From Oscillospiraceae bacterium (GTDB lineage Bacteria; Bacillota; Clostridia; Oscillospirales; CAG-272), in the NCBI GenBank assembly GCA_009779295.1, contig WREN01000002.1, positions 1 through 38,111 of the forward strand: DNA of 38,111 bases. Reading direction: 5' to 3'. Positions 7,493 through 35,364 of this stretch are shown in pieces (position 1 is the stretch's first letter; each line of letters begins with the position of its first letter). Under the pieces are notes generated by a model. It saw only the letters and a list, made by a program, of their open reading frames with translations. It had not been told where the DNA came from and did no database searches. A program made the translations under genes and the position numbers.

Positions 7493-7518
7493 AAACACCC
7501 GTAGGCGGCGGGTGTTTT
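7493..7518. repeat. Collapsed remnant of the double-hairpin repeat family; hairpin that may act as a terminator
   Basis: AAACACCC-GTAGGCGGC-GGGTGTTT(T). Equals the left end (aaacacccg) joined to the right end (cccgtaggcgggggg tgtttt) of the doublet at 35252-35364. Confidence 0.7.
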
Positions 7519-7542
7519 AATTTAAAAGGAGGCTACATAACA

Positions 7543-7998
7543 ATGAAAAAACCAAAAATCTTCGACGACTTTAAAAAATTCGCTTTCAAAGGCAACGTCA
7601 TGGACATGGCAATCGGTATTATCATCGGGTCGGCGTTCACGTCGATAATCAATTCGCTGGTCAACGATATAATCATGCCTGTCATTGGCAAATTCACCGC
7701 CGGACTCGATTACAGCAAGCTGGAACTTGTTATATCCGAAGCGGTTATCGACGAAGCCGGCAACATCATAACCCCTGAAACGGCAATCAGATACGGGATG
7801 TTCATACAGAACATCGTGTACTTTCTGCTTGTCGCGATTTCGTGTTTCATCGCGATAAAACTTATCGTCGGCGGCATGAATAAATTAAAACATCCGCCGG
7901 AACCCGCGCCGCCTCCGCCGCCCCCCGAAATTCCCGCGCAGGAAAAATTACTTACGGAAATCCGCGATATATTAAAAAATAATAAACAAAATTTATAA
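7543..7998 (+). CDS. mscL: Large-conductance mechanosensitive channel
   Basis: FKKFAFKGNVMDMAIGIIIGSAF, SLVNDIIMP, YGMFIQ, LLTEIRDIL. SD AGGAGG. Confidence 0.97.
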   Translation: MKKPKIFDDFKKFAFKGNVMDMAIGIIIGSAFTSIINSLVNDIIMPVIGKFTAGLDYSKLELVISEAVIDEAGNIITPETAIRYGMFIQNIVYFLLVAISCFIAIKLIVGGMNKLKHPPEPAPPPPPPEIPAQEKLLTEIRDILKNNKQNL

Positions 7999-8024
7999 AT
8001 AAATTCGGGAGGAATAAAAATAAT

Positions 8025-8969
8025 ATGTATTATATTGGTATTGATTTAGGCGGAACGAATATTGCCGCCGGAATCGTTGACGAGAATTACAAAATCATCA
8101 AAAAAGGCAGCACTCCCACGCTCGGCAACCGCGACCCTAAAGAGATTATCCGCGACATGGGCGCGCTTTGCGCGCGCCTTGTGGAAGAGTGCGGGCTTAC
8201 GTTCGATGATATCGAATACGCAGGCATCGCCGCGCCGGGCACGGCTAACGCCGCTACGGGTATGATCGACTTCGCGAACAACCTGCCGTTCCTGCACTTC
8301 CCTATCTCGGAAGTATTGATGAGTTTTATACCTGTCAAGAAAGTCTACATCGACAACGACGCTAACGCCGCCGCTTGGGCTGAGGCTATAGCGGGCGCGG
8401 CTAAGAATGTCGCCAACTCTGTCTTCATCACGCTCGGAACGGGTGTCGGCGGCGGCGTTATAATCAACGGCAAGCTGTACGCGGGGTTCAATTACGCCGG
8501 AGCCGAACTCGGTCATATGGTTATCGAGTACAAAGGCCGTCCCTGCACGTGCGGACGCTACGGCTGCTGGGAAACTTACAGCTCCGCGACGGGGCTGATC
8601 AACATGACGCGCGAAAAAATGCTCGAAAACAAAGACTCGGTGATGTGGGATATGTGCGAAAATTCCATTGATAAGCTGAGCGGCAAGACTGCGTTCGCCG
8701 CAATGAAGAAAGGCGACAAAGCCGCGAGCGAAGTCGTCGATATGTACATAAAATATCTTGCGTGCGGTATCGGCAACATCATCCTGCTGTTCCAGCCGGA
8801 GATACTCTGCATCGGCGGCGGCGTATGCAACGAAGGCGACTATTTGATGAAACCGCTTATGGCAATTTTGAATAACGAACCGGCAATCGAAAGAAGAAAA
8901 ACGCAAATAAAAATAGCCGAGTTAGGAAACGACGCCGGTATCATCGGCGCGGCGGTGCTTGGATTATGA
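8025..8969 (+). CDS. ROK-family sugar kinase (glucokinase-like)
   Basis: IGIDLGGT, DNDANAAA, TLGTGVGGG, ELGHM..CTCGRYGCWE zinc motif, LGNDAGIIGAA. No N-terminal HTH. Confidence 0.92.
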   Translation: MYYIGIDLGGTNIAAGIVDENYKIIKKGSTPTLGNRDPKEIIRDMGALCARLVEECGLTFDDIEYAGIAAPGTANAATGMIDFANNLPFLHFPISEVLMSFIPVKKVYIDNDANAAAWAEAIAGAAKNVANSVFITLGTGVGGGVIINGKLYAGFNYAGAELGHMVIEYKGRPCTCGRYGCWETYSSATGLINMTREKMLENKDSVMWDMCENSIDKLSGKTAFAAMKKGDKAASEVVDMYIKYLACGIGNIILLFQPEILCIGGGVCNEGDYLMKPLMAILNNEPAIERRKTQIKIAELGNDAGIIGAAVLGL

Positions 8970-9514
8970 ACGTAGTTTTGCTCGGCGATTCGATTCGCAT
9001 GAATTATCAGGCTAAAGTCAGATTTTATCTCGACGGCGTCGCGGATGTCTACACCCCGGATGAAAACTGCCGCTGGAGCAGTTATACTTTAAAATTCCTT
9101 TTTACATGGTTTGCGGCGTTTCCGAAAGATATTGACGTTGTGCATTGGAACAACGGGCTTTGGGATGTTTCCACCGTTGAAATTGACAACAATACGTTTT
9201 CATCAATTTATACCTATATGGATTACATGTCGCGTATATTAAGAATCCTGCGCACAAAAACCCGGAAAATTATATTCGCGACTACAACTCCGGCAATAGC
9301 AAATCACATACGGAACGAAAACGTAAATTTATTCAATTCCGTTATAACAGATTTTATGAATAAAGAAGGCGTGCCCATAAACGATTTAAACGCCTTGATA
9401 ACCGCAAATACCGATAAATATTTAGTTGAGGACGGCGTTCATTTAAGCGAAGCGGGAATGGACGCGTGCGGCAAAGCGGTTGCGGATAAGATTATTGAGG
9501 TTTACAATTCATGA
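8966..9514 (+). CDS. SGNH/GDSL hydrolase
   Basis: LLGDSI block I, WNNGLWD block III, DGVH block V. Confidence 0.88.
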   Translation: MNVVLLGDSIRMNYQAKVRFYLDGVADVYTPDENCRWSSYTLKFLFTWFAAFPKDIDVVHWNNGLWDVSTVEIDNNTFSSIYTYMDYMSRILRILRTKTRKIIFATTTPAIANHIRNENVNLFNSVITDFMNKEGVPINDLNALITANTDKYLVEDGVHLSEAGMDACGKAVADKIIEVYNS

Positions 9515-10551
9515 TGAACGATAACATGAAAAAATACAAGCCGGATTGGACCGAAGCGAAACAGCGCATGACCGATTGGTGGAACGGCAAAAAAGTAGAC
9601 CGCGTCGTCGCGAGCGTCCGCGCGCCGAAACCTGTTGATAACCTTCCGCCGTACATCGGCCGCGTGCCGGACAAATACACCGATCACGATACTGTGTTCC
9701 ACAACTTAGACCGCGCGCTGAATTCCACTTTATACTATGCGGAGGCGTTCCCGTTCCATTTCGTGTACTTCGGACCGATGTTCACGGTCACGTATTTCGG
9801 CGCGGAACCGACGTTCACCGAAACTACTACTTGGTACAAGCCGAATTTTCAAACGCTCGATGAGATAATCGCGTACAAGCCGGATTTTCCCAACAATAAA
9901 TGGTGGAACATAAGTATGGATATCCAAAAAAAATCCGTCGAACGCGCCGACGGCAGCTATTTGGTTACGGGGATTGGGTTCAGTTCGTACATTGATATCC
10001 TGGACGCTTTGCTCGGCACGGAAAAACTGTTGTGCGCGATGGTCCAAGAACCGGAAAAAGTCATTGCGGCGCGCGATAATTTGATAAAACATACCGCAAT
10101 CGAACGTGAAAACGGCGACGGAAGTATAAGCTGGCTCGGAATTTGGACGCCGGACAAAACGACGTGCAACCAGTGCGACCTGTGCGTCATGATTTCGCCG
10201 GAAATGTTTGACAGGTTCGTGTTCGACGATTTGAAATCCACTTACGATCAGCTTGACCGCGGAATGTATCACCTTGACGGCGAAGAGGAGATAAGACATT
10301 TGGATTCGCTGTTCCGTTTGGAGAAACTGCAAATGATTCAGTGGGTGCCGAACAGAAACCATGACCCGTTAAACTGGATCGACTTGTTCAAGCGCATACA
10401 AAACGCGGGTAGAAGCGTTCTCATCAGCACGCCGTACACAAGAGTCCGGGAACTCTTGGATAAACTCGACCGCGATCTGGTGTACCTTGACGTGTGGTGC
10501 CCGAACGAGGAGGAAGCAAATCAAGTCATGCGCGAACTTGAGAGAAAATGA
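9511..10551 (+). CDS. Uroporphyrinogen decarboxylase/methyltransferase (URO-D-like) family protein
   Basis: QCDLCVMISPEMFDRFV, YHLDGEE, IQWVP motifs typical of the clostridial URO-D-like family. Substrate unknown. Confidence 0.7.
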   Translation: MMNDNMKKYKPDWTEAKQRMTDWWNGKKVDRVVASVRAPKPVDNLPPYIGRVPDKYTDHDTVFHNLDRALNSTLYYAEAFPFHFVYFGPMFTVTYFGAEPTFTETTTWYKPNFQTLDEIIAYKPDFPNNKWWNISMDIQKKSVERADGSYLVTGIGFSSYIDILDALLGTEKLLCAMVQEPEKVIAARDNLIKHTAIERENGDGSISWLGIWTPDKTTCNQCDLCVMISPEMFDRFVFDDLKSTYDQLDRGMYHLDGEEEIRHLDSLFRLEKLQMIQWVPNRNHDPLNWIDLFKRIQNAGRSVLISTPYTRVRELLDKLDRDLVYLDVWCPNEEEANQVMRELERK

Positions 10552-11075
10552 GATTTGACGTTACGTAAACGCCCTTTATAAACTTCATGGAGTTCCGGCA
10601 GATCGCAGAAATCGGCCGGCTTGATGAGGTTTATTTTTTTCGGGAATTTCAGCGCGCCGTTGGTGTAAAGGATGTGCGCGACGAACTGCGAACACACAAA
10701 ATGATACCGCCGCTCGATAGAAATGCCGAAGTTGTACATAATCAATCCGATAAGGTTGTATTTGTACGCGTCGTAGTTGTTCAGCATATCGCCGATCCGC
10801 GATTTGATGGATTCGTATGTATCTTCGTTGATTTCGAGCTCATAAAGCGCGCAAGGCGCGTCGCCGTTACGGGCGAAAATTCCCGTGTCGATGTCTTCAT
10901 GGATGAATCCGGCAATAAGCGGAAAGTGGATGTTACGCCGCGCGAAACTGTAAAGTTCGTTGAGTTCTTTATCGAGCGCAATCGATGCGTGGGAGTATGT
11001 ATCGCCGTTCACCTTGCGGATAATCCGGGCGGGGAGCGTATTTGTTTTTGTCAGCAGGATGTAAACCGATTTCAT
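10521..11075 (-). CDS. Permuted papain-like (NlpC/P60, YiiX-like) protein
   Basis: YSHASIA (His) precedes FVCSQFVA (Cys), the permuted order. YKYNLIGL. Overlaps the convergent gene by 31 nt. Confidence 0.7.
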   Translation of the reverse strand: MKSVYILLTKTNTLPARIIRKVNGDTYSHASIALDKELNELYSFARRNIHFPLIAGFIHEDIDTGIFARNGDAPCALYELEINEDTYESIKSRIGDMLNNYDAYKYNLIGLIMYNFGISIERRYHFVCSQFVAHILYTNGALKFPKKINLIKPADFCDLPELHEVYKGRLRNVKSHFLSSSRMT

Positions 11076-11147
11076 AAATTATTATCACCTGTGGGTATTA
11101 TATCACAGATTTGCTACGTTGTAAAGGGAGAAAATATATTTTGGATA

Positions 11148-11176
11148 TTGACAAGTATTTTAAATTATGGTATATT
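11148..11176 (+). promoter_or_regulatory. Sigma-70/A promoter of the mlrC-SBP cluster
   Basis: TTGACA-17 nt-TATATT with extended TG. Confidence 0.75.
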
Positions 11177-11187
11177 ATGATGTAACA

Positions 11188-11199
11188 GCAAACGTTTTC
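11188..11199. promoter_or_regulatory. Possible LacI-family operator
   Basis: GCAAACGTTTTC, an imperfect palindrome with a central CG just downstream of the predicted TSS. Confidence 0.45.
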
Positions 11200-11207
11200 A
11201 AAAATAA

Positions 11208-11273
11208 AAACACCCGGCGCTACGGCGCCACCCTCTTTACCCGCGCCAATAAATTGGCGCTAAAGAGGGCAAG
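11208..11273 (+). repeat. Double-hairpin REP-like unit (singlet) with an inserted palindrome
   Basis: 11208-11240 matches 35252-35284 at 32/33 nt. The second hairpin CCCTCTTT..AAAGAGGG carries the insert GCGCCAATAAATTGGCGC. Confidence 0.85.
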
Positions 11274-11284
11274 GAAGTAATGCC

Positions 11285-12637
11285 ATGAAAATTTTTATAG
11301 GCTCAATACAAATGGAAGTAAACACGTTAAGCCCGCTTCGGAATACCATCGAAGCGTTTAATTTCGTCGAAGGCGACAGGATGTTAACAAAAACGCCCGC
11401 GACGGAAGTTTTCGCCGAATGTGAAGTAATCCCGTCAATTTACGGCAACGCTTTGCCTTCGGGTCCGCTCGCGAAAGAAGTGTTCGGCGAACTGTTGGGC
11501 AAGCTCGTCACATCGCTCAAAAACGCCGGTAATGTTGACGGCGTTTGGCTCTATCTTCACGGCGCGCTCGAAGTGGACGGCGCAGGGAGCGGCGACCTCG
11601 CGATCGTCAAAGCGCTGCGTGAAGTAACCGGCTACAACATTCCCTATGCGGTCGCGCTGGACTTTCACGCCAACAACGACGAGGATATCGTCAACCATTG
11701 CAATATCATCTGCGGTTACCGCACGGCTCCGCACGCCGATATGGAAGCAACGCAGATCAAAGCCGCCAAACTGCTGCTGTATTGCCTGCGCAACAAAATA
11801 ATGCCGCGATGTATCATCAAAACCATCCCGGCGATTGTCGCGGGCGACACGATAATCACGGCCGAAACACCCTATCAAATACTCGACAAGCGTCTGCGCG
11901 AGATCGACAACGATTCGCGCATACTGAACATTTCGTTTTTCAGCGGGCAGAATTGGGCGGACGTTCCCAACAACCACGCGAGCGTAGTCGTATGCTACGC
12001 AAACGAACAGGAGAATATCGCTGTTGCGAATGGTTATGCCGGTGAGATTGCCGGCATATATTGGAACATCAAAGCCAAATTCAAGTTTCAGGTCGAAACT
12101 TACATGCCTGAAGAAGCGTTGAAGCGCTGTATGGAATATACGGATTCGCCTGTATTTTGCAGCGATTCCGGCGACAACGTAACCGCGGGAGCGGGCGGCG
12201 GAAGCACGTTATTGCTGTCTTTGGCAATCAAACTTGGTATGAAAAAAACTCTCTTCGCGGGCATTTACAGCCCTGAATTATACGAACAATGTAAACGCGG
12301 CACAATCAACGGCGCGACCGTCAAAAAGCATTGTGAAATATTGAGCTGGAGCGACGAACCGGCAGGCGGAGGATTTTTAATCACGATGGGAGGTATTGAC
12401 GTTATCGTTACTGAAAACCGCTGCGGATTCATCTCGCCTGAAATCATCGAATCCGGCGGCGTTAAAATCGGCGAATATAATATTATTGTAGTCAAACTTG
12501 GATACTTATATCCAAAACTTGCTGAAATCGCGAAAAAAGCGATTCTTGCGTTCACGCCCGGCGACAGCTGCGTGGATATCAAACAGTTGAAATTTAAAAA
12601 CATTAAAAGACCGTGTTACCCTTTTGATGTTTTTTGA
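11285..12637 (+). CDS. M81-family metallopeptidase (MlrC-like)
   Basis: EVNTLSP, LYLHGAL, ALDFHAN, YRTAPHAD, SDSGDNVTAGAGG, IVVK. Confidence 0.88.
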   Translation: MKIFIGSIQMEVNTLSPLRNTIEAFNFVEGDRMLTKTPATEVFAECEVIPSIYGNALPSGPLAKEVFGELLGKLVTSLKNAGNVDGVWLYLHGALEVDGAGSGDLAIVKALREVTGYNIPYAVALDFHANNDEDIVNHCNIICGYRTAPHADMEATQIKAAKLLLYCLRNKIMPRCIIKTIPAIVAGDTIITAETPYQILDKRLREIDNDSRILNISFFSGQNWADVPNNHASVVVCYANEQENIAVANGYAGEIAGIYWNIKAKFKFQVETYMPEEALKRCMEYTDSPVFCSDSGDNVTAGAGGGSTLLLSLAIKLGMKKTLFAGIYSPELYEQCKRGTINGATVKKHCEILSWSDEPAGGGFLITMGGIDVIVTENRCGFISPEIIESGGVKIGEYNIIVVKLGYLYPKLAEIAKKAILAFTPGDSCVDIKQLKFKNIKRPCYPFDVF

Positions 12638-12677
12638 TGAAAATTTATAAATTTAAATATTAAATGGAGGAAAGATT

Positions 12678-14153
12678 ATGTTCAATTTAAAAAAGGCGTT
12701 ATGTTTCGCGCTGATTTTATGCTTTTTAGTTACGACGGTACTTGCGGCATGTTCCAAAAGCGAAGAACCATTAAATGTCAATACTGGGGGGGGGCAATAC
12801 CTTCCCGACGACGTACTCATTGACAGCCTTGAAGCGAGACGGTTTGTTTCAGACGAGGTTCCCGCGATGAATTTCAACGGAGCGGAATTCAGGATAGTGA
12901 CCCAGACGCATGAATCAGGTAATATTATTCAGGAAGAAGCTACCGGAGATACAATTAAAGACGTAATTTACGAAAGAACCGTCGCGGTTGAAGACAGGTT
13001 CAACATCAAATTTGTATTGATCCCTGACACATACTGGGAAAATAACAATTATGTAACTAAAGTCGTTATGGCGAACGAGGACGCGTTCGATTTCTTTTAC
13101 GGTCAGGGCGTGTCAACTTCCGAAGTGGTTTTGAAAAAGTTGATGCTGTCGTGGGAATATATCCCATACGTTGATTTTTCCAAACCGTGGTGGTCTTCGA
13201 GTACGGTTGACGACTTGTCGGTACTCGGCAAGACCTATTTAGCGATCGGCGACTTTTCGCTCTCATCGCAAACAACGACATACTGTATGTATTACAACAA
13301 AATGCACGCGGAAAGATATATGCTTCCCGATATGTATGACGTTGTTAAAAAAGGTCAATGGACGGCCGATAAACTTCTTGAACTCACAAAAGACATTTAC
13401 GAAGACCTTAACGGCGACGGCGTAAAAGATTCCGAAGACTTTTTCGGTTATTCGGGTTCTCCGCTCAGTCCTATCAACGCGTTCCTTCAGTCGTTTGACA
13501 ACCCGATCATGAAGAAAGACGAAACCGGTATCCCGCAGGTAGTATTGAAAACGCCGAAAATGACGGATCTCATTGAAAAGCTCAAATATCTGCACTTTGA
13601 AAACCCGGGTTCATGGTGCGATAAAAACGATGATTATTCTAAAGGCAACAGCGGGTCGGTGCTTTTCGTCGGAAGCCGCTGCATATTCATAACCGGCGGG
13701 CTTAACTATGGTTTCCGCGCACTTGAAGAGGATTACGGAATTATCCCGTATCCGAAGTGGGACGAGATTCAGGACAGATACAAAACTATGTCGGACGGAG
13801 GCATGTCTCTGTTCGCGATACCGATAACCGCGAGTAACCTTGAGATGATCGGCGCGGTAACGGAAGTTCTGAACGCGGAGAGCTGGAAGTATCTGATGCC
13901 GGCATACTACGACATCGCGCTCAAAGTCAAGAGCGTCAGGGACGAGCAGTCGATCGAGATGATCGAGCTTATCATGGACGGGCGCGTATACGATTTCGGC
14001 TACACGTTCGATAACTGGCAGGGTATGGGGTTCGTCGTCGAATGGCTCTTGCGGAGCGAGCAGAGTTTCGAAACATGGTACGCGGCGAACGAAACTAAAG
14101 CTCTGACGCATTATACTAAGATGGTCAATGTGTTCTTGGGGATAGAGGATTAG
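12678..14153 (+). CDS. Extracellular solute-binding lipoprotein (carbohydrate ABC SBP-like)
   Basis: Lipobox LAAC, DFSKPWW, GQWTADK, DLNGDGVKDSED loop, YGIIPYPKWDEIQ. Confidence 0.85.
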   Translation: MFNLKKALCFALILCFLVTTVLAACSKSEEPLNVNTGGGQYLPDDVLIDSLEARRFVSDEVPAMNFNGAEFRIVTQTHESGNIIQEEATGDTIKDVIYERTVAVEDRFNIKFVLIPDTYWENNNYVTKVVMANEDAFDFFYGQGVSTSEVVLKKLMLSWEYIPYVDFSKPWWSSSTVDDLSVLGKTYLAIGDFSLSSQTTTYCMYYNKMHAERYMLPDMYDVVKKGQWTADKLLELTKDIYEDLNGDGVKDSEDFFGYSGSPLSPINAFLQSFDNPIMKKDETGIPQVVLKTPKMTDLIEKLKYLHFENPGSWCDKNDDYSKGNSGSVLFVGSRCIFITGGLNYGFRALEEDYGIIPYPKWDEIQDRYKTMSDGGMSLFAIPITASNLEMIGAVTEVLNAESWKYLMPAYYDIALKVKSVRDEQSIEMIELIMDGRVYDFGYTFDNWQGMGFVVEWLLRSEQSFETWYAANETKALTHYTKMVNVFLGIED

Positions 14154-14158: not shown

Positions 14159-14300
14159 GGAATCCCCCTTGTCAAACGCCAACAAGTTGGCGATGTGACA
14201 TCCCCCCTTTAGCAAGGGGGGCAAGAAAGAGAAAGAAACGGAAATCGCAACCTCCTTGCCTCCATTGCCAAAGGGGGGTGCCCGAAGGGCGGGGGGATTC
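14159..14300. repeat. Inverted doublet of double-hairpin REP-like units
   Basis: Left GGAATCCCCC-TTGTCA..TGACA-TCCCCCCTTTAGCAAGGGGGG. Right unit inverted, ...AAAGGGGGGTGCCCGAAGGGCGGGGGGATTC. Confidence 0.85.
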
Positions 14301-20550: not shown

Positions 20551-21798
20551 ATGAAATTATTAAATAGCAAATTTATATTTATATTTTTATGTTTAATATT
20601 GCTGTACAGCTGTAATAAACAAAGCGCTCTGCCGCCTGATATAGAGACTACGGTCGCAGTTAAACCGATAGATTCGGACAGCACTACCTTAATTGAAACC
20701 GCTCCGCCGGAAACTGAAACCACAACGCCGCCTGAGACGACTACAACCAAATCTCCCGAAACTACAACTACCACCGCTGAAACTACAACCAAACCGCCCG
20801 AAACAACCACTACTACAGCTCCCGTTACCACCACTAAACCTCCGGTGACTACTACAACGTCTCCTCCCGTTACGACAACTTTATCGCCGTCAACAACGAT
20901 CCCGCTGGCTGCGCCAGTTAAACCTAAAATAGATGAAGACGCAATTTTCAAAGGGGCGGCTGTCACAGGACTGAAAATGCCTTCCGCCGACGGTAAATCC
21001 CTTGCCTCAAGGGGCGTAGGTATCATTGATTACTCGAACGCTTCCGAAGGTTATGTTATGGTTAAATACGACGGAAAAACTTCAAACCTGCTCAATGTCC
21101 GCGTCTCGTTCGGCAATGAAATTTTAAACGATTATACGGGGATACTGCCCGGTGAATACGCGACGCTGCCTTTATCCGTCGGAAACGGTTCCTACAAGAT
21201 TACTTTGATGGAAATTGTAAACGGTAAAGGTTCCGGAATCGTTGACGTTACGGTTGACGTTAAATTAACTAATGATATTAACGGCTTCACTTATCCGAAC
21301 TTTTACGCTAATTATAACAAAGATTCCAAAGCCGTTAAAATAGCCGCGTATCTCGTAAAGGATATAAAAGACGAACTCAAAAAAATTGAGGCTATTTATA
21401 ATTATGTCATAACAACGTATTCATATGATTACGATTACGCGAAAAAAGTTATAAATAAGGAAGTTTCGTATCATGTTCCGGACCTCGAAAATATCGTAAA
21501 AAATAAAAAAGGCATTTGTTTCGATTACGCCGCGCTTATGGTGTCCATGCTCCGGAGCGTCGGCATACCGGCAAAGCATATTCACGGATATGCTCCTGAC
21601 GGGAAAGGCACTGAAGTATATCACGCGTGGATCAATACTTATACAAAAGAAACCGGCTGGATCAACGGCATTATTCAATTTGACGGCAAAAATTGGAAAC
21701 TGATGGATCCTACATACGTTTCTACAACAAACTCAAGCGACGCCGGTTATAAGCTTATCGGAGACGGCTCGAAATATAGGAATATGAAATATTTTTAA
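20551..21798 (+). CDS. Transglutaminase-like domain lipoprotein with Thr/Pro-rich stalk
   Basis: Lipobox LYSC, PETTTT repeats, GICFDYA (Cys), YHAWI (His), LMDPT (Asp). Confidence 0.88.
   Translation: MKLLNSKFIFIFLCLILLYSCNKQSALPPDIETTVAVKPIDSDSTTLIETAPPETETTTPPETTTTKSPETTTTTAETTTKPPETTTTTAPVTTTKPPVTTTTSPPVTTTLSPSTTIPLAAPVKPKIDEDAIFKGAAVTGLKMPSADGKSLASRGVGIIDYSNASEGYVMVKYDGKTSNLLNVRVSFGNEILNDYTGILPGEYATLPLSVGNGSYKITLMEIVNGKGSGIVDVTVDVKLTNDINGFTYPNFYANYNKDSKAVKIAAYLVKDIKDELKKIEAIYNYVITTYSYDYDYAKKVINKEVSYHVPDLENIVKNKKGICFDYAALMVSMLRSVGIPAKHIHGYAPDGKGTEVYHAWINTYTKETGWINGIIQFDGKNWKLMDPTYVSTTNSSDAGYKLIGDGSKYRNMKYF
20695..20900 (+). repeat. Low-complexity coding repeats (P-[E/V]-TTTT)
   Basis: ETAPPETETTTPPETTTTKSPETTTTTAETTTKPPETTTTTAPVTTTKPPVTTTTSPPVTTT, with synonymous codons diverged. 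Confidence 0.85.
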
Positions 21799-25839: not shown

Positions 25840-26745
25840 ATGAGCCGTATGGTTAAAATCGCGACAACATCACTATTAATTGACGATAAATCAAAAACCT
25901 TCGGCGTAGACATTGACAGAGCTGCCGAACTCGCCGAAGCCGCAGGTAAGGAAAACGCCGACATCGTTGTCCTGCCTGAATTGTTCGACGTTTACAGCAT
26001 CGGTCGCCACGATTGGCTGACGCACAGCGGCGAAATCATTCCCGGCGACGGCAGGTTGCAGACGCGATTTGCGGCAATCGCGAAAAAATACAACATGTAC
26101 GTAGTCATCAACATCCTTGAAATAAACGGCGAGAAATTACATAATACTGCCGTTTTATTCAACAGGGACGGCAGTTATAACGGCAAATACCGCAAGACAC
26201 ACCTCGCTCCGGGCGAAGAGGACTACATCACCGCAAGCAACGAATATCCCGTGTTCGAAACGGACTTCGGCAAGGTCGCGATGACAATCTGCATGGATAT
26301 ACACTTCCCAGAACTGTTCCGCATACTGGCGTTGCAGGGCGCGGACATAATCCTTCACCCCACTATGTGGCTTGACTATACCGGCGCGTACTGCGACGTT
26401 TGCGCGTGCGCAAGAGCGATCGATAACGGCATTTATATGGTTACGAGCCATTACGTGAACGTGCCGTTCCTTGCGGGCAGGGCAATGGGTCACGCTGTCG
26501 TCATTGATCCCATGGGGCGGGTTCTCGCCGATACCGGACACAGACCGGGCATAACGACAGCAACCGTTGACTTGGACGAATCGTACGAGTTTTGGGCGGG
26601 AGGCGGCACGGAATTGAAAAAACGCTATCCGACGCTCAAAGACTGCTATTTTAAGATCCGCAAACCGGAAACGTATGGGATATTAACGCGACCGGATGAA
26701 GAGAATGATTGGAAGATAGAGAACCCGACGCTGTATCAGCCTTAG
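25840..26745 (+). CDS. Carbon-nitrogen hydrolase (nitrilase superfamily)
   Basis: Triad LPELF (Glu), YRKTHL (Lys), TICMD (Cys). ATG 25840 behind AAGGAGG. Confidence 0.92.
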   Translation: MSRMVKIATTSLLIDDKSKTFGVDIDRAAELAEAAGKENADIVVLPELFDVYSIGRHDWLTHSGEIIPGDGRLQTRFAAIAKKYNMYVVINILEINGEKLHNTAVLFNRDGSYNGKYRKTHLAPGEEDYITASNEYPVFETDFGKVAMTICMDIHFPELFRILALQGADIILHPTMWLDYTGAYCDVCACARAIDNGIYMVTSHYVNVPFLAGRAMGHAVVIDPMGRVLADTGHRPGITTATVDLDESYEFWAGGGTELKKRYPTLKDCYFKIRKPETYGILTRPDEENDWKIENPTLYQP

Positions 26746-26863
26746 GAATCCCCCCTGTCGCCTGCGGGCGACATCCCCCCTTTAACAAGGGAGGGAAAGA
26801 TAAAACGTTCCTTCCTGCCCACCCTTGCTAAAGGGGGGCTGCCGCCGCAGCGGCGGGGGGATT
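26745..26863. repeat. Inverted doublet of double-hairpin REP-like units
   Basis: GGAATCCCCCC-TGTCGCC(TGCG)GGCGACA-TCCCCCCTTTAACAAGGGAGGG ... CCCTTGCTAAAGGGGGG-CTGCCGCCGCAGCGGC-GGGGGGATT. Confidence 0.88.
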
Positions 26864-26883
26864 TATAGGAGGAATATAAACTT

Positions 26884-30507: not shown

Positions 30508-30541
30508 AACAATCCGTTTACGCATAACGCATGTACGACAC

Positions 30542-30578
30542 GGAATCCCCTCTACCGTTTGGCGGGGGGATTCTTTTT
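30542..30578 (+). terminator. Intrinsic terminator formed from a collapsed repeat doublet
   Basis: GAATCCCC..GGGGATTC stem plus TTTTT. Ends are identical to the outer ends of the 14159-14300 doublet. Confidence 0.72.
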
Positions 30579-30602
30579 AATATGTAAAAAAAATAAATTC
30601 TA

Positions 30603-30631
30603 TTGATTTTAGACACAATATGTGGTATAAT
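30603..30631 (+). promoter_or_regulatory. nrdG promoter with overlapping NrdR box
   Basis: TTGATT-17 nt-TATAAT with extended TG. ACACAATATGTGGT at 30613-30626 resembles the NrdR consensus acaCwAtATaTwGtg. Confidence 0.7.
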
Positions 30632-30663
30632 AATCATATTAAAGAGCGGATAGGGGACAAACA

Positions 30664-31230: not shown

Positions 31231-31643
31231 ATAACGACAATCTAACACCCGAACAAAAAGAACAGGCGTTACAGGAGTTTAACGCCAAGAAAGAGAAACA
31301 ATTCGAAATAGGTAAAGTAATCATTATTTGCGTGGTGATTTCGGACATTTTGATGTCGGCTTTATCTGCAATTGTTAATTTGAACATTGGGATATTGATT
31401 ATGTCAATCGTGTTTTCTGTCATGCTCTTCACGGGCAATCCTGTCATAAGATATGTTTTCGCCGCGAAATCGCTTGTGAATATCGGCGTTATTTTCTACG
31501 TCCTGACTTCACCGGAAATCATCGTGCCGACATGGGGGATCGTTGTTTTGATGACGCAATTGGCGTACTGCATAGCCGCGAGCGTGCTGCTGGTCGTGAG
31601 CCAATGCGTGAGCGAATATATGTATAATAAGAAGAATGGGTAA
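31227..31643 (+). CDS. Hypothetical membrane protein (~4 TM)
   Basis: ATG 31227 overlaps the nrdG stop. Four hydrophobic stretches. Confidence 0.7.
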   Translation: MNNDNLTPEQKEQALQEFNAKKEKQFEIGKVIIICVVISDILMSALSAIVNLNIGILIMSIVFSVMLFTGNPVIRYVFAAKSLVNIGVIFYVLTSPEIIVPTWGIVVLMTQLAYCIAASVLLVVSQCVSEYMYNKKNG

Positions 31644-31660
31644 GAACGGAATCCAAAAAA

Positions 31661-31705
31661 AAATTCCCCTCCTTGGAGGGGGTGGCGCAACGCGCCGGGG
31701 TGGTT
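31661..31705 (-). repeat. REP-like unit, left flank of DUF559 gene
   Basis: Reverse complement is AACCACCCC-GGCGC(GTT)GCGCC-ACCCCCTCCAAGGAGGGGAATTT, an inverted copy of 32102-32143. Confidence 0.9.
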
Positions 31706-31747
31706 TTGATGCGATAATTTGAATGTATAATTGGAAAAGGTGAACAA

Positions 31748-32158
31748 ATGCGCAACAGTAAATCCTATTTCACGCTTCCTTTCAACCCCCATCTGCGTGA
31801 ACGCGCCAGAGAACTGCGTAAAGCCGGATATTTATGCGAAGTATTATTGTGGAAGCAACTTCATAATAATAAATTCAAACAATACGATTTCGACCGTCAA
31901 AAAATTATAGGTGATTATATCGTTGATTTTTTTTGTGGGAATTGTAATGTTGTTATAGAAATCGACGGGAAGTCCCATGATAAGAAAGTTTCATATGATA
32001 AGATACGAGATTGTTATCTTGAAGGATTGGGATTAATTGTTATTCATATTCCGGCGATGGATATTTTGAATGATTTGAATAGTGTAATGTCAATGCTTCA
32101 CAACCACCCCGCCCTTCGGGCACCCCTCCAAGGAGGGGAATTTGAACGGGCAGAGTAA
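31748..32158 (+). CDS. DUF559 / Vsr-like endonuclease domain protein
   Basis: LRERARELRK..EVLLWKQL, FDRQKIIGDYIVDF, VIEIDGKSH, RDCYLEGLGLIVIHI. AT-rich. SD AAGGTG. Confidence 0.9.
   Translation: MRNSKSYFTLPFNPHLRERARELRKAGYLCEVLLWKQLHNNKFKQYDFDRQKIIGDYIVDFFCGNCNVVIEIDGKSHDKKVSYDKIRDCYLEGLGLIVIHIPAMDILNDLNSVMSMLHNHPALRAPLQGGEFERAE
32102..32143 (+). repeat. REP-like unit, right flank of DUF559 gene (inside its 3' end)
   Basis: AACCACCCC-GCCC(TTC)GGGC-ACCCCTCCAAGGAGGGGAATTT. Confidence 0.9.
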
Positions 32159-32307
32159 ACGAAAAATGAAATTCAATTATACAGAGGTGAATAAAATGAA
32201 AGACGAATATACCGCAGAAGATTTCGCAAAAGCTGTCAAAAATCCGTTTTTTCATTATGAGCCGCTGTTTAACGGATTATGCCAAAAAACTACAGGAAAG
32301 TGAATGA
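32159..32307 (+). pseudogene. Remnant of a BrnT/BrnA-like toxin-antitoxin pair
   Basis: TKNEIQLYRGE* (toxin-like C-terminus), then SD GAGGTG and ATG 32196 MKDEYTAEDFAKAVKNPFFH. A shifted frame gives IMSRCLTDYAKKLQESE*, consistent with an internal deletion. Confidence 0.5.
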
Positions 32308-33470
32308 TTAACACCATGTCCGACGCTTACACATCACGGGGCGCTTCCGCTACGAAAGAAGACATCCATAAAGCCATAGCACAGCTTGACAAAGGCGTGT
32401 TCAAGGGCGCGTTCTGCAAAATCATCGCCGATCCTTACGGCGACGACACCATGTGCGCGGCTATGCACGCCGACGGCGCAGGCACTAAAGCCGCCCTCGC
32501 CTATCTCAAATACAACGAGACCGGAGATTTCGGCGCGTACTTCGACATCGCACAGGACTCGACCGTCATGAACCTCGACGACCTGCTGTGCGTCGGAGCG
32601 GTGGACAACTTCATCATGTCCAACACCATCGACCGTAACGCCCACCGCATAGACGGCAACGCCATCAAGGCTATCATCGAAGGATATCAGAGTTTCTTAA
32701 ACAAAATGGCTCTTTACGGGATCAACATAACGATGTCGGGCGGCGAAACCGCCGACGTAGGCGATCTGACGCAAACACTTGTTGTGAACACTACGCTGTT
32801 CGTGCGGATGAAACGATCCGACGTTATCAACTGCGACAACATCAGCGCGGGCGACGTGATTGTCGGGTTTTCTTCGTTCGGACAAGCATCTTATGAGGAT
32901 AAATATAACGCAGGTATGGGTTCGAACGGTCTAACCGCCGCGCGCCATTTGTTGCTGTCGAAGTATTACGCGGACAAATATCCCGAAACGTATTCAAACA
33001 CAATCGACAAGAGCAAAGTCTACTGCGGAAAATATCGTCTGGAAGATACGTTGCTCGGAACAAATATGTCCGTTGGCGACGCTATCCTCTCACCGACGCG
33101 TACTTACGCGCCGATTATAAAAGAGATTTTGTACACCAATTCCGAAAAAGTCCACGGTTTGATCCATTGCACTGGCGGCGGGCAGGTTAAATGCCGCAAC
33201 TTCGGTAATGGATTGCATTACATCAAGGACAATTTGTTCGAGATTCCGCCGCTGTTCCGGGCGATTTACGAGAGCGGCGAGATAAGCGAGCGCGAGATGT
33301 ACCAGACGTTCAATATGAGTCACAGGCTTGAGCTGTTCTGCGAACCGCAGTATGCGGATGGATTTATCGCAACGGCAAAGAAGTACAACGTTGAGGCGAA
33401 AGTTGTGGGCAGGGTTGAGAAGAGTGATTCGGACGTGAATACGTTGACGATTGGGAATTTTGAATATTGA
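32304..33470 (+). CDS. purM: Phosphoribosylformylglycinamidine cyclo-ligase (AIR synthase), long-form
   Basis: MHADGAGTK, MNLDDLLCVGA, GGETADVGD, GMGSNG, LSPTRTY, IHCTGGG, EMYQTFNM. Confidence 0.88.
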   Translation: MINTMSDAYTSRGASATKEDIHKAIAQLDKGVFKGAFCKIIADPYGDDTMCAAMHADGAGTKAALAYLKYNETGDFGAYFDIAQDSTVMNLDDLLCVGAVDNFIMSNTIDRNAHRIDGNAIKAIIEGYQSFLNKMALYGINITMSGGETADVGDLTQTLVVNTTLFVRMKRSDVINCDNISAGDVIVGFSSFGQASYEDKYNAGMGSNGLTAARHLLLSKYYADKYPETYSNTIDKSKVYCGKYRLEDTLLGTNMSVGDAILSPTRTYAPIIKEILYTNSEKVHGLIHCTGGGQVKCRNFGNGLHYIKDNLFEIPPLFRAIYESGEISEREMYQTFNMSHRLELFCEPQYADGFIATAKKYNVEAKVVGRVEKSDSDVNTLTIGNFEY

Positions 33471-33498
33471 GGGAAATTATATAATCGGAGGTATAAAA

Positions 33499-33996
33499 AT
33501 GTTTGAACAAAAGATTGAAGACTTTATCATTGAATATCTCGCTGGGGACACACAAAAAAATGCTTTGGAATTCGTTAAATATTTGAGAGAGAATGAAATG
33601 CAGTTTTATAGAGATAAAAATGGTTATTGGGAAGATAAACTCTATTGGTGGATAAAATACAAAGAACAATATTTTTGTTTTATTTTAGTTAACGGCTATG
33701 AAGATGGTCATTGGGGTATTTGGTTTGAAGATGGCGGTTCAGATTGTTATGCAGATTTTCCAGTAACCGAACGGATAAAAGAGATTGCATGGGCAAATGT
33801 TGACGTGTTCAAAGGTGATTGTGGCGGTGGGCAATGTGAAGGATTGCGTAAAGTAATATTTGGAAAACTATTTGAAAGTCTATATCGTACACTAATGTTT
33901 TTCGACAATCCGAATACCGAGGCAGTTGAGTGCATGAAGAAATTAGGTAAAATAAGAAAAGCCGCTATTTTAGAGAATAAAGAATGCACAAATTAA
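33499..33996 (+). CDS. Hypothetical protein, AT-rich
   Basis: ATG 33499 behind GGAGG. Trp/Cys-containing, with no recognised motif. Confidence 0.75.
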   Translation: MFEQKIEDFIIEYLAGDTQKNALEFVKYLRENEMQFYRDKNGYWEDKLYWWIKYKEQYFCFILVNGYEDGHWGIWFEDGGSDCYADFPVTERIKEIAWANVDVFKGDCGGGQCEGLRKVIFGKLFESLYRTLMFFDNPNTEAVECMKKLGKIRKAAILENKECTN

Positions 33997-34027
33997 ACAT
34001 TTTCTACATCTTAAAGGAGGAATAGAA

Positions 34028-34969
34028 GTGTTGAATCCGAGAATTTTAGTAGTCAGCAGCGCTAACATGGACGTTGCGGCCTACACATACAGAACGCCGG
34101 TTGCGGGTCAAACTGTTATCGGCGACACATACGATTTCATTCCCGGCGGTAAGGGCGCGAACGCCGCCATTACCCTGTCGCGGCTCGGCGGCGACAGCGT
34201 TTTCTGCGCCAAGCTGGGTCACGATCCGAACGGCACTGCGCTCATGAAGTTTTATGACACCAGCGGCATCGACACGCGGTTTATTTCGCTTGACCGGAAT
34301 GAAAAGACGGGATTAGCGATTATAATCGTCGAGACTAACGGCAATAACCGTATCATCGTTTATCCCGGCGCGAACTTCAAACTGTCGGTCTCGAACGTCG
34401 AGGACGCGTTTACGTGCTACCCAGACGCATTGTTTCTGCATCTTGAAATACCTGTAGAAACGGTCATCGCCGCGACGCAATTCGCGAAGGATCAAGGAAT
34501 CCCGATATTCATCGACGCGGGTCCGGCTACGAAAGAATTCCCGCTTGAGGAACTCGCGGTCGTTGAGGTTTTCTCGCCCAACGAGACGGAAACGCAGGTG
34601 TTCACCGGAGTCAATCCTACAACTCCGGAAATGTGCGTGAAGGCGTGCATGGCGTTAGCGAACCGAATCAAAGCAAAGTATTACGTTATCAAACTCGGCG
34701 AACGCGGCGCGTTTCTTTACGACGGCAAGTTTTATAAAATGCTCGCGCCGTATGACGTTGACGTGGTTGACACGACGGCGGCAGGCGACGCGTTCACGGC
34801 GGCGCTGACGTTGGAGTACATGCGTTCGGGCGACATCAAGCGCGCGTGCGAATACGCCAACATCGTGGGATCATTAACGGTTTCGAAAGCGGGCGCGTCG
34901 CCGTCACTGCCGACCGCCGCGGAAGTGAAACGGTTTGTGATCGAGAATGAGATAAATTTTAAGTTATGA
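34028..34969 (+). CDS. rbsK: Ribokinase (PfkB family)
   Basis: SANMD, PGGKGANAA, PNETE, KLGERGA, VDTTAAGDAF. GTG start behind AGGAGG. Confidence 0.9.
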   Translation: MLNPRILVVSSANMDVAAYTYRTPVAGQTVIGDTYDFIPGGKGANAAITLSRLGGDSVFCAKLGHDPNGTALMKFYDTSGIDTRFISLDRNEKTGLAIIIVETNGNNRIIVYPGANFKLSVSNVEDAFTCYPDALFLHLEIPVETVIAATQFAKDQGIPIFIDAGPATKEFPLEELAVVEVFSPNETETQVFTGVNPTTPEMCVKACMALANRIKAKYYVIKLGERGAFLYDGKFYKMLAPYDVDVVDTTAAGDAFTAALTLEYMRSGDIKRACEYANIVGSLTVSKAGASPSLPTAAEVKRFVIENEINFKL

Positions 34970-35253
34970 ACCCATTCTACCAAGAAGTCTACGGTATCGT
35001 AGAGCAAATCCCGCGCGGGAAAGTTATCTCCTACGGGCAGATCGCCCGTATGCTGGGACGACCGCATGCAGCCCGAGAGGTCGGACGCGCCATGCACCAC
35101 TGCCCTGAACATCTCCCTTGGCAGCGGGTCGTCATGGCGGACGGTAATATCACAGCCGGCACGTTTGCGGATGAACGCAAGGAATTGCTTGAAGCAGAAG
35201 GAGTGGCGTTTCTGCCTGACGGGCGTGTGGATATGGAAGTTTGTAGGATATAA
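34966..35253 (+). CDS. Alkyltransferase-like (ATL/YbaZ) protein
   Basis: QIPRGKVISYGQIA, AREVG, LPWQRVV (Trp replaces the MGMT catalytic Cys), LLEAEGV. Confidence 0.9.
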   Translation: MNPFYQEVYGIVEQIPRGKVISYGQIARMLGRPHAAREVGRAMHHCPEHLPWQRVVMADGNITAGTFADERKELLEAEGVAFLPDGRVDMEVCRI

Positions 35254-35364
35254 ACACCCGGCGCTGCGGCGCCACCCTCTTTACGAAAGAGGACAAGGAT
35301 AAGAACGAACCAATTCCCAGCCCTCTTTTGTAAAGAGGGTACCGCCCGTAGGCGGGGGGTGTTT
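35252..35364. repeat. Inverted doublet of double-hairpin REP-like units
   Basis: AAACACCC-GGCGC(TGCG)GCGCC-ACCCTCTTTACGAAAGAGG ... CCCTCTTTTGTAAAGAGGG-T-ACCGCCCGTAGGCGG-GGGGTGTTT. Confidence 0.9.

Follow-up and report, generated by a model that had tools for sequence, protein, structure and literature searches.

Paired hairpin repeats beside DUF559 nuclease genes in a termite-gut Clostridia bacterium, possible arms of a small REPIN/RAYT-like element

Described systems and the proposed reading

The BoxC, PIT and TM repeats of E. coli, TM_ECO among them, fold as an intrastrand triplex in vitro (Holder et al. 2015, PMC4666352), and TM_ECO has a three-block pattern like that of the repeat arms analyzed here. 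The likeness extends to the order of the blocks on one strand, which is pyrimidine arm, purine complement and G-rich mirror block (PMC4666352; earlier BoxC work, including that of Hoyne and Maher, as cited there). Both groups are intergenic, multi-copy and often arranged as inverted pairs, both leave deletion remnants that still form a hairpin, and neither has a transposase nearby. However, the second loop of TM_ECO is 3 nt long (1–6 nt in the search of Holder et al.), whereas a whole variable hairpin of 11–40 nt occupies this place in our repeats. Their stems are 7–9 nt long and of other sequence, they fall into three subtypes, and the host is a termite-gut Clostridia bacterium. PMC4666352 makes no mention of an endonuclease (the word occurs 0 times).

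REP sequences and REPINs with their RAYT proteins offer a second parallel (PMC3116915, PMC3337134, PMC3733652). Here too the unit is a short tagged hairpin, inverted doublets are the abundant form, subtypes are paired with a low-copy gene that has inverted units on either side, and units lie at the 3' ends of genes. The enzymes differ, RAYT being a Y1 HUH transposase and DUF559 a Vsr-like PD-(D/E)XK nuclease, as do the tags, which are GTAG or CGTC in REPs and a putative triplex third strand in our repeats. Unlike RAYT genes, the DUF559 gene is multi-copy, patchy and horizontally spread.

MITEs with an autonomous partner are similar in their terminal inverted repeats, and the short type A and B copies resemble internal deletions of gene-bearing copies of 473 to 499 nt. 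In contrast to MITEs, our repeats lack a transposase, the short copies show no visible target duplication, and the gene of type C, like that of most other genomes, is located outside the doublet. Finally, the homing endonuclease I-Bth0305I (PDB 3r3p; PMC3239194), with a Vsr-like catalytic domain, is a distant relative of the DUF559 profile (E 0.0034) and likewise a small selfish nuclease gene that spreads by cutting DNA. It sits in a group I intron of a phage and cleaves one unique duplex site, whereas the DUF559 genes are free-standing between repeats that are predicted to fold.

We assign a probability of about 0.55 to the reading that these repeats form the arms of a small element that exists at the DNA level, is probably mobile and resembles REPIN/RAYT systems, with a DUF559 nuclease replacing the transposase. 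The products of small DUF559 genes, which lie between inverted arms of their own subtype, would recognise the folded arm and nick it. Nicking would set off the copying of arms and doublets, and at times of the gene too, and doublets without a gene would be non-autonomous passengers, as REPINs are to RAYT. Repeats of this kind have had no partner enzyme, and the DUF559 nuclease may fill that place. We know of no chemistry by which a Vsr-like nickase alone moves DNA, and our literature search found no paper describing a pairing of DUF559 with repeats.

Repeat arms and their copies in the window

The window, the whole analyzed stretch of 38,111 nucleotides, comes from a genome assembly that is 72% complete. 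The unit of C-rich tag, variable hairpin 1 and conserved hairpin 2 is real and far beyond chance: allowing at most one mismatch over the tag and both halves of hairpin 2, we found 73 units genome-wide and 1 across three shuffled genomes. With exact anchors there are at least 119 units, and hairpin 1 is present in 114 of 119. The three tag and hairpin 2 subtypes of the preliminary description hold throughout the genome (30 units of type A, 71 of type B and 18 of type C), and the stems and tags that it had named were all found in place. One correction to it is that the units are not stand-alone repeats. They form the two arms, in inverted order, of palindromic doublets that measure 96–153 nt and fit tightly into the space from a stop codon to the following gene.

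In the type A doublet at 35252–35364 (no strand assigned), the left arm (35252–35292) consists of the tag AAACACCC (35252–35259), hairpin 1 GGCGC/GCGCC (35260–35273) and hairpin 2 CCCTCTTT/AAAGAGG (35275–35292), followed by a spacer. The right arm (35321–35364) contains the purine arm AAAGAGGG of hairpin 2' (35332–35339), hairpin 1' (35342–35355) and the third strand GGGTGTTT (35357–35364). Folded as single-stranded DNA, the doublet reached −37 kcal/mol (z −8.05), and none of 200 shuffles was as good. The same left arm occurs singly at 11208–11269 on the forward strand, with tag, hairpin 1 (11216–11229) and hairpin 2 and without a right arm. An extra hairpin (11243–11260) is nested in the hairpin 2 loop, the DNA fold is −22.8 kcal/mol (z −6.08), and a similar copy lies on contig C227.

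Two type B doublets, again without an assigned strand, start with the tag GGAATCCCCC. In the doublet at 14159–14300 the left arm comprises the tag (14159–14168), a long hairpin 1 with a nested hairpin (14170–14200) and hairpin 2 (14202–14221). The right arm has a decayed pyrimidine arm, a purine arm (14270–14278), hairpin 1' GCCC/GGGC (14280–14290) and the third strand GGGGGGATTC (14291–14300). This doublet begins 6 nt past the stop codon at 14151–14153, ends just before the ribosome-binding site of the next gene and folds as DNA at −43.1 kcal/mol (z −7.11). The doublet at 26745–26864 begins directly past the TAG stop codon (26743–26745) and folds as DNA at −42.1 kcal/mol (z −6.41). Its left arm consists of the tag (26745–26755), hairpin 1 TGTCGCC/GGCGACA (26756–26773) and hairpin 2 (26775–26795), and its right arm of hairpin 2' (26818–26838), hairpin 1' GCCGC/GCGGC (26841–26854) and the third strand (26855–26864).

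The type C arms, both annotated on the forward strand, flank the DUF559 gene of the window. The arm at 31666–31705 is read on the G-rich strand, with hairpin 2' (31666–31681, purine arm GGAGGGG), hairpin 1' (31684–31696) and the third strand GGGGTGGTT (31697–31705). The DUF559 start codon follows 43 nt downstream of this arm, whose inverted repeat partner is at 32100–32143. Within that partner, the C-rich arm at 32102–32138 consists of the tag AACCACCCC (32102–32110, the complement of 31697–31705), hairpin 1 (32111–32121) and hairpin 2 (32123–32138).

Two smaller features have no assigned strand. A type A remnant at 7492–7518 lacks hairpin 2 and retains the two tags, separated by a piece of one hairpin 1; contig C108 carries an identical copy of 28 nt. 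At 30542–30573 the type B tags GGAATCCCC and GGGGGGATTC themselves form a simple stem, after which comes a run of T. This may be a remnant or a terminator-like relative; a search for a second copy in the genome returned only the self-match.

Pairing of hairpin 1 and the mirror rule

Hairpin 1 had been proposed to be kept as structure and not as sequence, and a partner-shuffle test bore this out, with changes on both sides that preserve pairing. The largest same-length class, in type A, comprised 13 distinct sequences with 5 pairs each. Pairing held in 63 of its 65 cells, and all 5 positions showed at least two Watson-Crick pair types. When the 3' partners were re-dealt, 38.4 ± 3.4 cells were paired, and 0 of 1000 shuffles reached 63. 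For type B, the 20-nt class had 36/42 paired cells versus 25.9 after shuffling (0/1000) and the 23-nt class 34/35 versus 29.6 (3/1000); six further small classes varied too little to inform the test.

The 263 cells comprised 229 Watson-Crick pairs, 8 G-T pairs and 26 unpaired positions, and 245 comparisons showed both sides changed and paired versus 43 with one side changed and pairing broken. The scarcity of G-T pairs and of such intermediates would also fit a mutational origin, in which intrastrand template switching or gene conversion in quasi-palindromes copies half-stems and no selection acts on the fold. Whole hairpin 1 modules are common to types B and C (GCCCTTCGGGC and a 21-nt module), so block swapping occurs, which also favours this process. 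However, the non-palindromic loop keeps one polarity: with the tag read 5', TNCG occurs in 73 of 111 loops and the reverse CGNA in 0 of 111, which template switching would not preserve. Moreover, the hairpins differ in length and are sometimes nested, yet they always stand at the two loop positions of the proposed triplex fold. We regard a purely mutational origin of the pairing as rather unlikely. The earlier statement that TNCG corresponds to GNA on the other strand applies to the C-TNC-G triloops (32/111) and fails for the c-TNCG-g tetraloops (35/111), which read c-CGNA-g.

The tag is the mirror image of the hairpin 2 purine arm (with A read as T). This mirror rule is the one that governs intrastrand DNA triplexes of the purine motif. 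In the window, the rule pairs AAAGAGGG with GGGTGTTT in type A, AAGGGGGG with GGGGGGATT in type B, and GGAGGGG with GGGGTGG in type C. An informative purine/pyrimidine hairpin was present near the gene in 98 of 108 DUF559 loci of other genomes. A mirror-compatible third strand lay 6–55 nt 3' of the purine arm in 91 of these 98, whereas a direct, non-mirrored copy was found in only 27, and 24 different purine 7-mers were represented.

Given the mirror rule, the G-rich DNA strand is likely to be the folded form, with hairpin 1 as a structured linker. This would explain why tag and hairpin 2 co-vary while the sequence of hairpin 1 is free. The order on this strand would be pyrimidine arm, short loop, purine arm (together the Watson-Crick hairpin 2), hairpin 1 and the G/T third strand. 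Since it mirrors the purine arm, the third strand, which is the tag on the other strand, could fold back onto hairpin 2 as a purine-motif (reverse-Hoogsteen) triplex. Hairpin 1 would then stand in for the 3-nt second loop of BoxC/PIT/TM repeats, and as a compact stable hairpin would be the sole need, its sequence could drift and swap while pairing and loop type stay. This fold is predicted from the mirror symmetry; ordinary folding programs cannot score a triplex with a hairpin linker.

The repeats could instead work as RNA, as structured modules between the cistrons of polycistronic mRNAs that would make upstream messages more stable, define processing sites or adjust how the next gene is translated, their link to DUF559 being incidental. 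All three full doublets of the window lie between same-strand genes, 0–6 nt past the stop codon and ending just before the next ribosome-binding site, and in 25 of 46 doublets one end and the stop of a flanking ORF are no more than 15 nt apart (heuristic ORFs). The z-scores of −6.4 to −8.1 show strong folds, RNA loops of the c-UNCG-g kind would have very high stability, and E. coli REPs are reported to stabilise mRNA (PMC3733652). Against this stands the mirror rule itself, because purine-motif triplexes cannot form in RNA (Holder et al. 2015, introduction, PMC4666352). The doublets are palindromic and lie beside genes of either strand, so no RNA strand is preferred, and G-U-type pairs are rare. 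The tight link to a nuclease gene and the presence or absence between relatives, described below, fit mobile DNA. Thus, we consider an RNA role very unlikely.

DUF559 genes, arm association and signs of mobility

The DUF559 gene of the window (31748–32158, forward strand, 136 aa; Pfam PF04480, E 5.6e-26) encodes a Vsr-like nuclease of the PD-(D/E)XK superfamily, and its last approximately 19 codons read through the downstream arm. A profile of six DUF559 proteins matches PDB 3hrl (E 3.9e-25) in addition to I-Bth0305I, and the D, ExD and H residues are invariant across the six. All four DUF559 genes of the genome sit between arms, two flanked by type B and two by type C, one of the latter pair being truncated. 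The suggestion of one cognate enzyme per subtype is supported at the level of genes, for types B and C in this genome itself. No type A gene was found in this 72% complete genome; such genes occur in other genomes (L017, L029 and L036).

Most DUF559 relatives in other genomes also lie between arms. In 24 loci, stretches within 260 nt of a DUF559 gene, 12,434 bp in total, contained 41 arms, whereas the 49,475 bp lying beyond 400 nt contained 1, an approximately 150-fold difference in density, and flanking inverted repeats were well above shuffled controls in 48 of 79 evaluable loci of named genomes. Arm class clusters on the DUF559 tree (25 changes versus 49, minimum 45, in 200 label shuffles), which demonstrates co-inheritance, not co-evolution. 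The type C hairpin 2 motif was present in 13 of 301 genomes of the order, in up to 136 copies, and 10 of these 13 have a DUF559 gene, compared to 74 of 301 overall.

Another enzyme might move the arms, either an IS transposase acting in trans or host recombination or replication slippage at triplex-forming DNA, with DUF559 as a passenger. To our knowledge, nickase-only mobile elements have no precedent. A long type B element carries a glyoxalase-like gene in place of DUF559, so arms can bracket other genes, and in one genus, three of four genomes have 10–26 copies of the type C motif without a DUF559 match at E 1e-10. TM repeats have been tied to local instability without any mobility gene (Holder et al., PMC4666352). 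However, no transposase adjoins the arms in the loci examined, and the only Y1 transposase of the genome, in an IS200/IS605 copy with tnpB, has no arms nearby. Arm subtype follows the DUF559 tree, and the density of arms beside these genes would be unexpected for a random passenger. We judge movement by another enzyme to be unlikely.

The reading of a REPIN/RAYT-like element with its own nuclease also draws on differences between relatives. The doublet at 35252–35364 is absent from the orthologous site in related metagenome contigs: in L129/L130 (85–86% identical protein) the flanking genes overlap, and a contig of run X4 has 56 letters instead of 176 at this site. A related X4 contig lacks 31638–34015, a segment with the DUF559 gene, both arms and the next two genes downstream. 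Host sequence is directly repeated (56, 28 and 31 nt) on both sides of the gene, and these repeats abut the arms at L041 and L039; no target-site duplication was visible at doublets of this genome. Short type B doublets resemble internal deletions of the gene-bearing copies of 473 and 499 nt. A single scheme of autonomous copy and deletion derivative does not account for every case: types A and B here have the gene within the doublet, whereas type C and most other genomes have it outside, with the tags adjoining it.

DUF559 could also be a host or domesticated nuclease that repairs or controls triplex or hairpin DNA and limits repeat damage, acting against the repeats or neutral to them and kept beside the arms by regulation or capture. 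Its characterised relative Vsr is a repair nickase (PMC3424549), and it is found in only 1–5 copies per genome, in 74 of the 301 genomes, like the single-copy RAYTs (bioRxiv 10.1101/119735). In L030, L032 and L035 it immediately precedes a type I restriction gene, as read from translated frames. The third strand also serves, in many loci, as ribosome-binding site of the DUF559 gene (GGAGGGATTGTAATG), and self-regulation would therefore be possible. A mobile gene better fits the patchy distribution, which reaches distant phyla of gut bacteria, the host-sequence duplications at gene-plus-arm units and the joint absence of gene and arms in a close relative, and a repair or control role thus appears improbable. 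An exact match to TM_ECO lies approximately 170 nt downstream of the gene at an E. coli DUF559 locus.

Architecture and abundance of the repeat elements

The repeat unit, here called an arm, had been described as a C-rich tag followed by hairpin 1, with variable stems, and hairpin 2, occurring in three subtypes (here A, B and C). All of the stems, tags and positions named in that preliminary description are present in the sequence. The order of tag, hairpin 1 and hairpin 2 was also borne out, but the units are not free-standing: the three full copies in the window (35252-35364, 14159-14300 and 26745-26864, 113-142 nt each) are palindromic doublets, in which the tag, hairpin 1, hairpin 2 and a spacer of 20-50 nt are followed by the reverse complements of hairpin 2, hairpin 1 and the tag. 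The window also contains a single arm at 11208-11269, in which the loop of hairpin 2 holds a further, nested hairpin, and remnants at 7492-7518 and 30542-30573 that are reduced to the two tags. The window elements occupy the gap from a stop codon to the next ribosome-binding site. Folding of the doublets as single-stranded DNA with ViennaRNA, in which the scores count Watson-Crick pairs only, gave -37 to -43 kcal/mol (z -6.4 to -8.1), and none of 200 shuffles folded as well. A role of the elements at the level of RNA is a rival to one at the level of DNA. The Rfam search at the gathering threshold showed no match at the elements, the sole match in the window being RNase P.

The genome (2.45 Mb in 371 contigs, 72% complete, 43.7% G+C) was recovered from termite-gut metagenomes and is related to uncultured Clostridia, Acutalibacteraceae, Oscillospiraceae and Ruminococcaceae among them. 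BLAST matched the eight window copies to 76 loci in this genome. With strict patterns we counted 73 units, as compared to 1 in three shuffled genomes. A census allowing one mismatch per anchor (212 units versus 134 in shuffled genomes) was too loose, and the stricter patterns were used. Exact anchors identified 119 units (30 of type A, 71 of type B and 18 of type C), which paired up into 46 doublets (11, 28 and 7, respectively), both counts being lower bounds since repeats break assemblies. Hairpin 1 was present in 114 of the 119 units, in about 85 distinct sequences, and missing from the other five, which may be either deletion products or an older form. The doublets were 96-153 nt long in 43 cases, and the remaining three, all of type B, measured 473, 499 and 629 nt. 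The units are thus multi-copy, over-represented relative to scrambled genomes and intergenic: all 46 doublets lie between ORFs, and in 25 of them one end is no more than 15 nt away from a flanking ORF's stop codon, as judged by a simple ORF heuristic. In four termite-gut runs, the summed contig depth at the arms exceeded the baseline 5- to 100-fold, and arms are therefore very common in that habitat.

Compensatory pairing and a mirror rule within the arm

The stems of hairpin 1 had been noted to differ and yet to pair, and a partner-shuffling test within classes of the same length confirmed that both sides change while pairing is kept. In the 17-nt class of type A, with 13 distinct sequences, 63 of 65 cells were paired, and at least two Watson-Crick pair types were observed at all five positions. 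Redealing the 3' partners reduced this to 38.4 ± 3.4 paired cells, and none of 1000 shuffles reached 63. Pairing was likewise kept in the 20-nt class (36 of 42 cells; 0/1000 shuffles) and the 23-nt class (34 of 35 cells; 3/1000 shuffles) of type B, and six other small classes varied too little to be informative. Over all classes, 229 of 263 cells were Watson-Crick pairs, 8 were G-T pairs and 26 were unpaired, some of the latter being register shifts within a class. Entire hairpin-1 modules are common to subtypes B and C, and small hairpins are nested within hairpin 1 or in the loop of hairpin 2. A rival explanation is that mutation, and not selection, keeps hairpin 1 paired.

The hairpin-1 loops are polar. 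With the tag read at the 5' end, the TNCG loop, which had been put forward as the majority form, was found in 73 of 111 loops and CGNA in none. The proposed equivalence of TNCG to GNA on the other strand held in part, namely for the 32 C-TNC-G triloops, which on the G-rich strand read C-GNA-G, a very stable DNA mini-hairpin motif (PMC13037366). The c-TNCG-g tetraloops account for 35 of the 111 loops.

Tag and hairpin 2 co-vary by subtype, as had been claimed, and the relation between them can be stated as a rule. When the G-rich strand is read, the tag's complement (the third strand) is the mirror image of the hairpin-2 purine arm of its own subtype, with A read as T. In the window, the purine arm AAAGAGGG is mirrored by the third strand GGGTGTTT in type A, AAGGGGGG by GGGGGGATT in type B, and GGAGGGG by GGGGTGG in type C. 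Arms of all three subtypes in the window thus contain a pyrimidine arm, a purine arm and a mirroring G-rich block. At the level of sequence, this relation follows the rule for purine-motif triplexes in which a third strand runs antiparallel to the purine strand.

We examined the mirror rule at 108 loci in other genomes that encode DUF559 (PF04480), leaving out mirror-symmetric purine arms. At 98 of the 108 loci there was a purine/pyrimidine hairpin that was informative in differing from its mirror image; 91 of these had a mirror-compatible block 6-55 nt downstream, as compared to only 27 with a non-mirrored copy. The rule is followed by 24 different purine 7-mers at these loci. Genome-wide, the genome studied here contains 159 mirror versus 98 direct blocks, a count that is uninformative, since a run of G is identical to its mirror image. 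We also considered that the tag directly repeats the first part of hairpin 2 and that hairpin 1 is an insertion that duplicated its target. This was rejected, since the likeness is due to C-runs being mirror-symmetric and other subtypes lack it, for example at locus L033.

Triplex repeats as such are already known. Their first description, under the name BoxC, dates from the 1990s, and such repeats occur in hundreds of genomes and are linked to local genome instability. The BoxC, PIT and TM repeats of E. coli form intrastrand triplexes in vitro (Holder et al. 2015, PMC4666352). The TM_ECO pattern given there, CCCTCNCCC-N3-6-GGGNGAGGG-N3-GGGNGAGGG, matches the block pattern of our arms. The loops differ: the first loop is 3-6 nt and the second 3 nt in TM_ECO, and the ITxF search allows 1-6 nt (PMC4666352), whereas in the arms the first loop is 2-5 nt and the second is hairpin 1, of 11-40 nt, in 114 of 119 cases. 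The arms thus depart from the short loops of BoxC/PIT/TM and represent a variant that the published search (PMC4666352) would miss. Hairpin 1 occupies the place of the 3-nt second loop of TM_ECO; a hairpin joins its own two ends and can therefore replace a short loop with the fold undisturbed. Since hairpin 1 would stand in for a short loop, it is free in sequence yet kept paired. The first loop, which holds the extra hairpin at 11243-11260, is the other place in the arm that would tolerate an insertion. The window thereby gives a structural reason for a variable, always-paired hairpin between two co-varying conserved parts. To this our data add a variant with a hairpin as linker, for which covariation and loop polarity were measured, genes that match its three subtypes, and a site in both its filled and its empty state.

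DUF559 genes lie between arms of matching subtype

The window gene at 31748-32158 (+) matches PF04480 with 91 bits against a Pfam cut-off of 20.6, and D, ExD and H residues are invariant across six DUF559 proteins. A profile of six such proteins also matches PDB entry 3hrl at E 3.9e-25, with a more distant match to the homing endonuclease I-Bth0305I at E 0.0034. We therefore assign it to DUF559, a predicted Vsr-like PD-(D/E)XK nuclease.

The preliminary description had suggested one cognate enzyme per subtype. Our genome encodes four DUF559 genes, all between arms of subtype B or C, and type A genes were found within type A arms in other genomes (L017, L029 and L036). The two type B genes, on contigs C161 and C162, lie in the spacers of the 499- and 473-nt type B doublets, respectively, and at its ends the spacer of these two long copies agrees with that of the short doublets. 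The type C genes are the window gene, in which an arm encodes the last protein residues, and a truncated copy on contig C209; in both, the tags adjoin the gene. The third long type B element (contig C296, 380-1008, 629 nt) has arms bracketing a minus-strand ORF of about 135 aa without DUF559, which from its translation reads as glyoxalase/VOC-like.

A profile built from the six proteins identified DUF559, at 1-5 copies per genome, in 74 of the 301 genomes searched within the order. Flanking inverted repeats were well above shuffled controls at 48 of 79 loci in named genomes. Arm density was 3.30 per kb within 260 nt of a DUF559 gene and 0.02 per kb beyond 400 nt (41 arms versus 1 at 24 loci, four loci with short flanks being left out). 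The two arms that flank a gene have tag and hairpin 2 in common and usually differ in hairpin 1. When arm class was mapped onto a quick DUF559 protein tree (95 of 110 rows labelled; three stop-codon loci and the truncated C209 copy left out), 25 changes were required, as compared to 49 (minimum 45) in 200 label shuffles. The agreement between arm class and protein tree demonstrates co-inheritance only.

Two rival explanations concern the role of the gene in this association: that another enzyme mobilises the repeats, with DUF559 as a passenger, or that DUF559 serves in control or repair. The hairpin-2 motif of type C occurs in 13 of the 301 genomes, in up to 136 copies, and the backwards control contained no copy. 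A DUF559 match is present in ten of these 13 genomes, and the profile search found none in the other three, which belong to one genus. The long copies encode only DUF559 or the glyoxalase-like protein. As a candidate partner, RAYT, the Y1 HUH transposase (PF01797) associated with the inverted hairpin repeats known as REPINs, was not supported: the flanked genes are PF04480, and the sole PF01797 gene of the genome is without arms. The latter is part of an IS200/IS605-type copy (contig C25, 12270-13600; Y1 transposase, E 3.8e-41, followed by a tnpB-like ORF) that is unrelated to the repeats.

At one E. coli locus, a DUF559 gene is followed after about 170 nt by an exact TM_ECO match. At locus L136 (NZ_OL790696.1, 688-816; 4.8 Mb, filed as a plasmid), a second copy of about 24 nt of the DUF559 3' end lies about 100 nt further on, with a degenerate TM_ECO repeat on one side and an exact one on the other. 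In PMC4666352, a mobility function is stated never to have been found beside triplex repeats, and endonucleases are not mentioned. Our literature search on DUF559 (PF04480, COG2852, YcjD) and on Vsr with MITEs or palindromic repeats, with supplements outside its range, found no publication tying DUF559 to repeats. Searches of phage and plasmid collections with the type B protein identified no carrier; matches comprised two metagenomic 'Bacteriophage sp.' records and 36 plasmid-collection records at below 60% identity, and among the matches listed, two of the latter are chromosome-sized E. coli records of 4.8-4.9 Mb.

Other arrangements of the gene were also observed. At L023 (genome G058, contig C2, ~1300-2000), a type C DUF559 gene and both arms are in frame inside a 799-aa open frame, the translated flanks of which resemble a DNA methyltransferase. 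Two DUF559 matches in genome G059 lie within open frames of 539 and 583 aa. At L030, L032 and L035, DUF559 is directly upstream of, and overlaps, a gene with an N-terminus that we read as type I restriction R subunit-like, and arms are present on the upstream side only.

Signs of mobility and a possible mechanism

An empty site was identified for the type A doublet in the window. In two metagenome contigs (L129 and L130), the downstream protein is 85-86% identical and the upstream gene is kept, and the two genes overlap (ATGA) with no element in between. At the same junction, the window has a new ribosome-binding site together with the 113-nt doublet, and the upstream ORF terminates at the TAA that belongs to the element's end. 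The sequence at the empty site (GGGTGGCTTA) is similar to the end of the element itself (GGGTGTTTTA); this comparison of a filled with an empty site is a single case. A contig of about 90% identity from a DNA run (X4) has 56 letters in place of window positions 35239-35414, and another X4 contig of about 90% identity has 61 letters in place of 31638-34015. The latter segment is a small variable island with DUF559, its arms, and ORFs 32304-33470 and 33451-33996. In other genomes, direct repeats of host sequence (56, 28 and 31 nt) flank three gene-plus-arm units, and at L041 and L039 such repeats abut the arms. No target duplication was found in the flanks of the 46 doublets, and the long copies contain no transposase; the elements thus have inverted ends like MITEs but differ from these in both other respects. 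They resemble REPINs in that inverted doublets are the main form of the repeat.

The elements are most likely selfish repeats acting at the level of DNA. We estimate a probability of roughly one in three (0.35) that DUF559 proteins are the missing partner enzymes of BoxC/PIT/TM repeats, namely structure-specific nickases that act on triplex arms in the G-rich single strand, with hairpin 1 as a neutral linker, and whose nicking drives the copying of arms, doublets and their own gene. Within the G-rich single strand, the arm would fold so that the third strand packs onto hairpin 2, with hairpin 1 as a stable linker. The cognate DUF559 nickase would recognise the folded arm, and the nick, followed by repair or replication, would lead to copying of arms and doublets; we infer every step from recognition of the arm onwards. 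Doublets without a gene would be passengers, analogous to REPINs with RAYTs. Both layouts, with the gene inside a doublet or between tag ends, could have arisen from an arrangement in which two full doublets flank a gene; such an arrangement is present at locus L024.

If this is true, the elements would be a new class of mobile element with neither transposase nor integrase. The window itself provides a full case of triplex-type repeats with subtype-matched DUF559 genes, and in it a gut anaerobe carries these repeats in a more elaborate form. Action of the nuclease on the folded arm would also provide a natural example of a protein reading a DNA triplex, and the long-open questions of what the repeats are and what DUF559 does would become testable at the bench, with no more than oligonucleotides and a single small protein.

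Three further features were observed in the window. Just downstream of the studied region, the bacterial RNase P RNA of class A (RF00010, 256 bits) is located at 36908-37305 (+). It is followed at 37703-38109 (+) by 3-4 tandem copies of a 114-132 nt unit, with 68-83% identity to reference copies, in ORF 37358-38110, which looks like a repeat-domain protein running off the window. Finally, 21-nt periodic ACT/ACA/CCN repeats at 20740-20868 (+) in ORF 20551-21798 probably encode the Thr/Pro-rich linker of a secreted protein.
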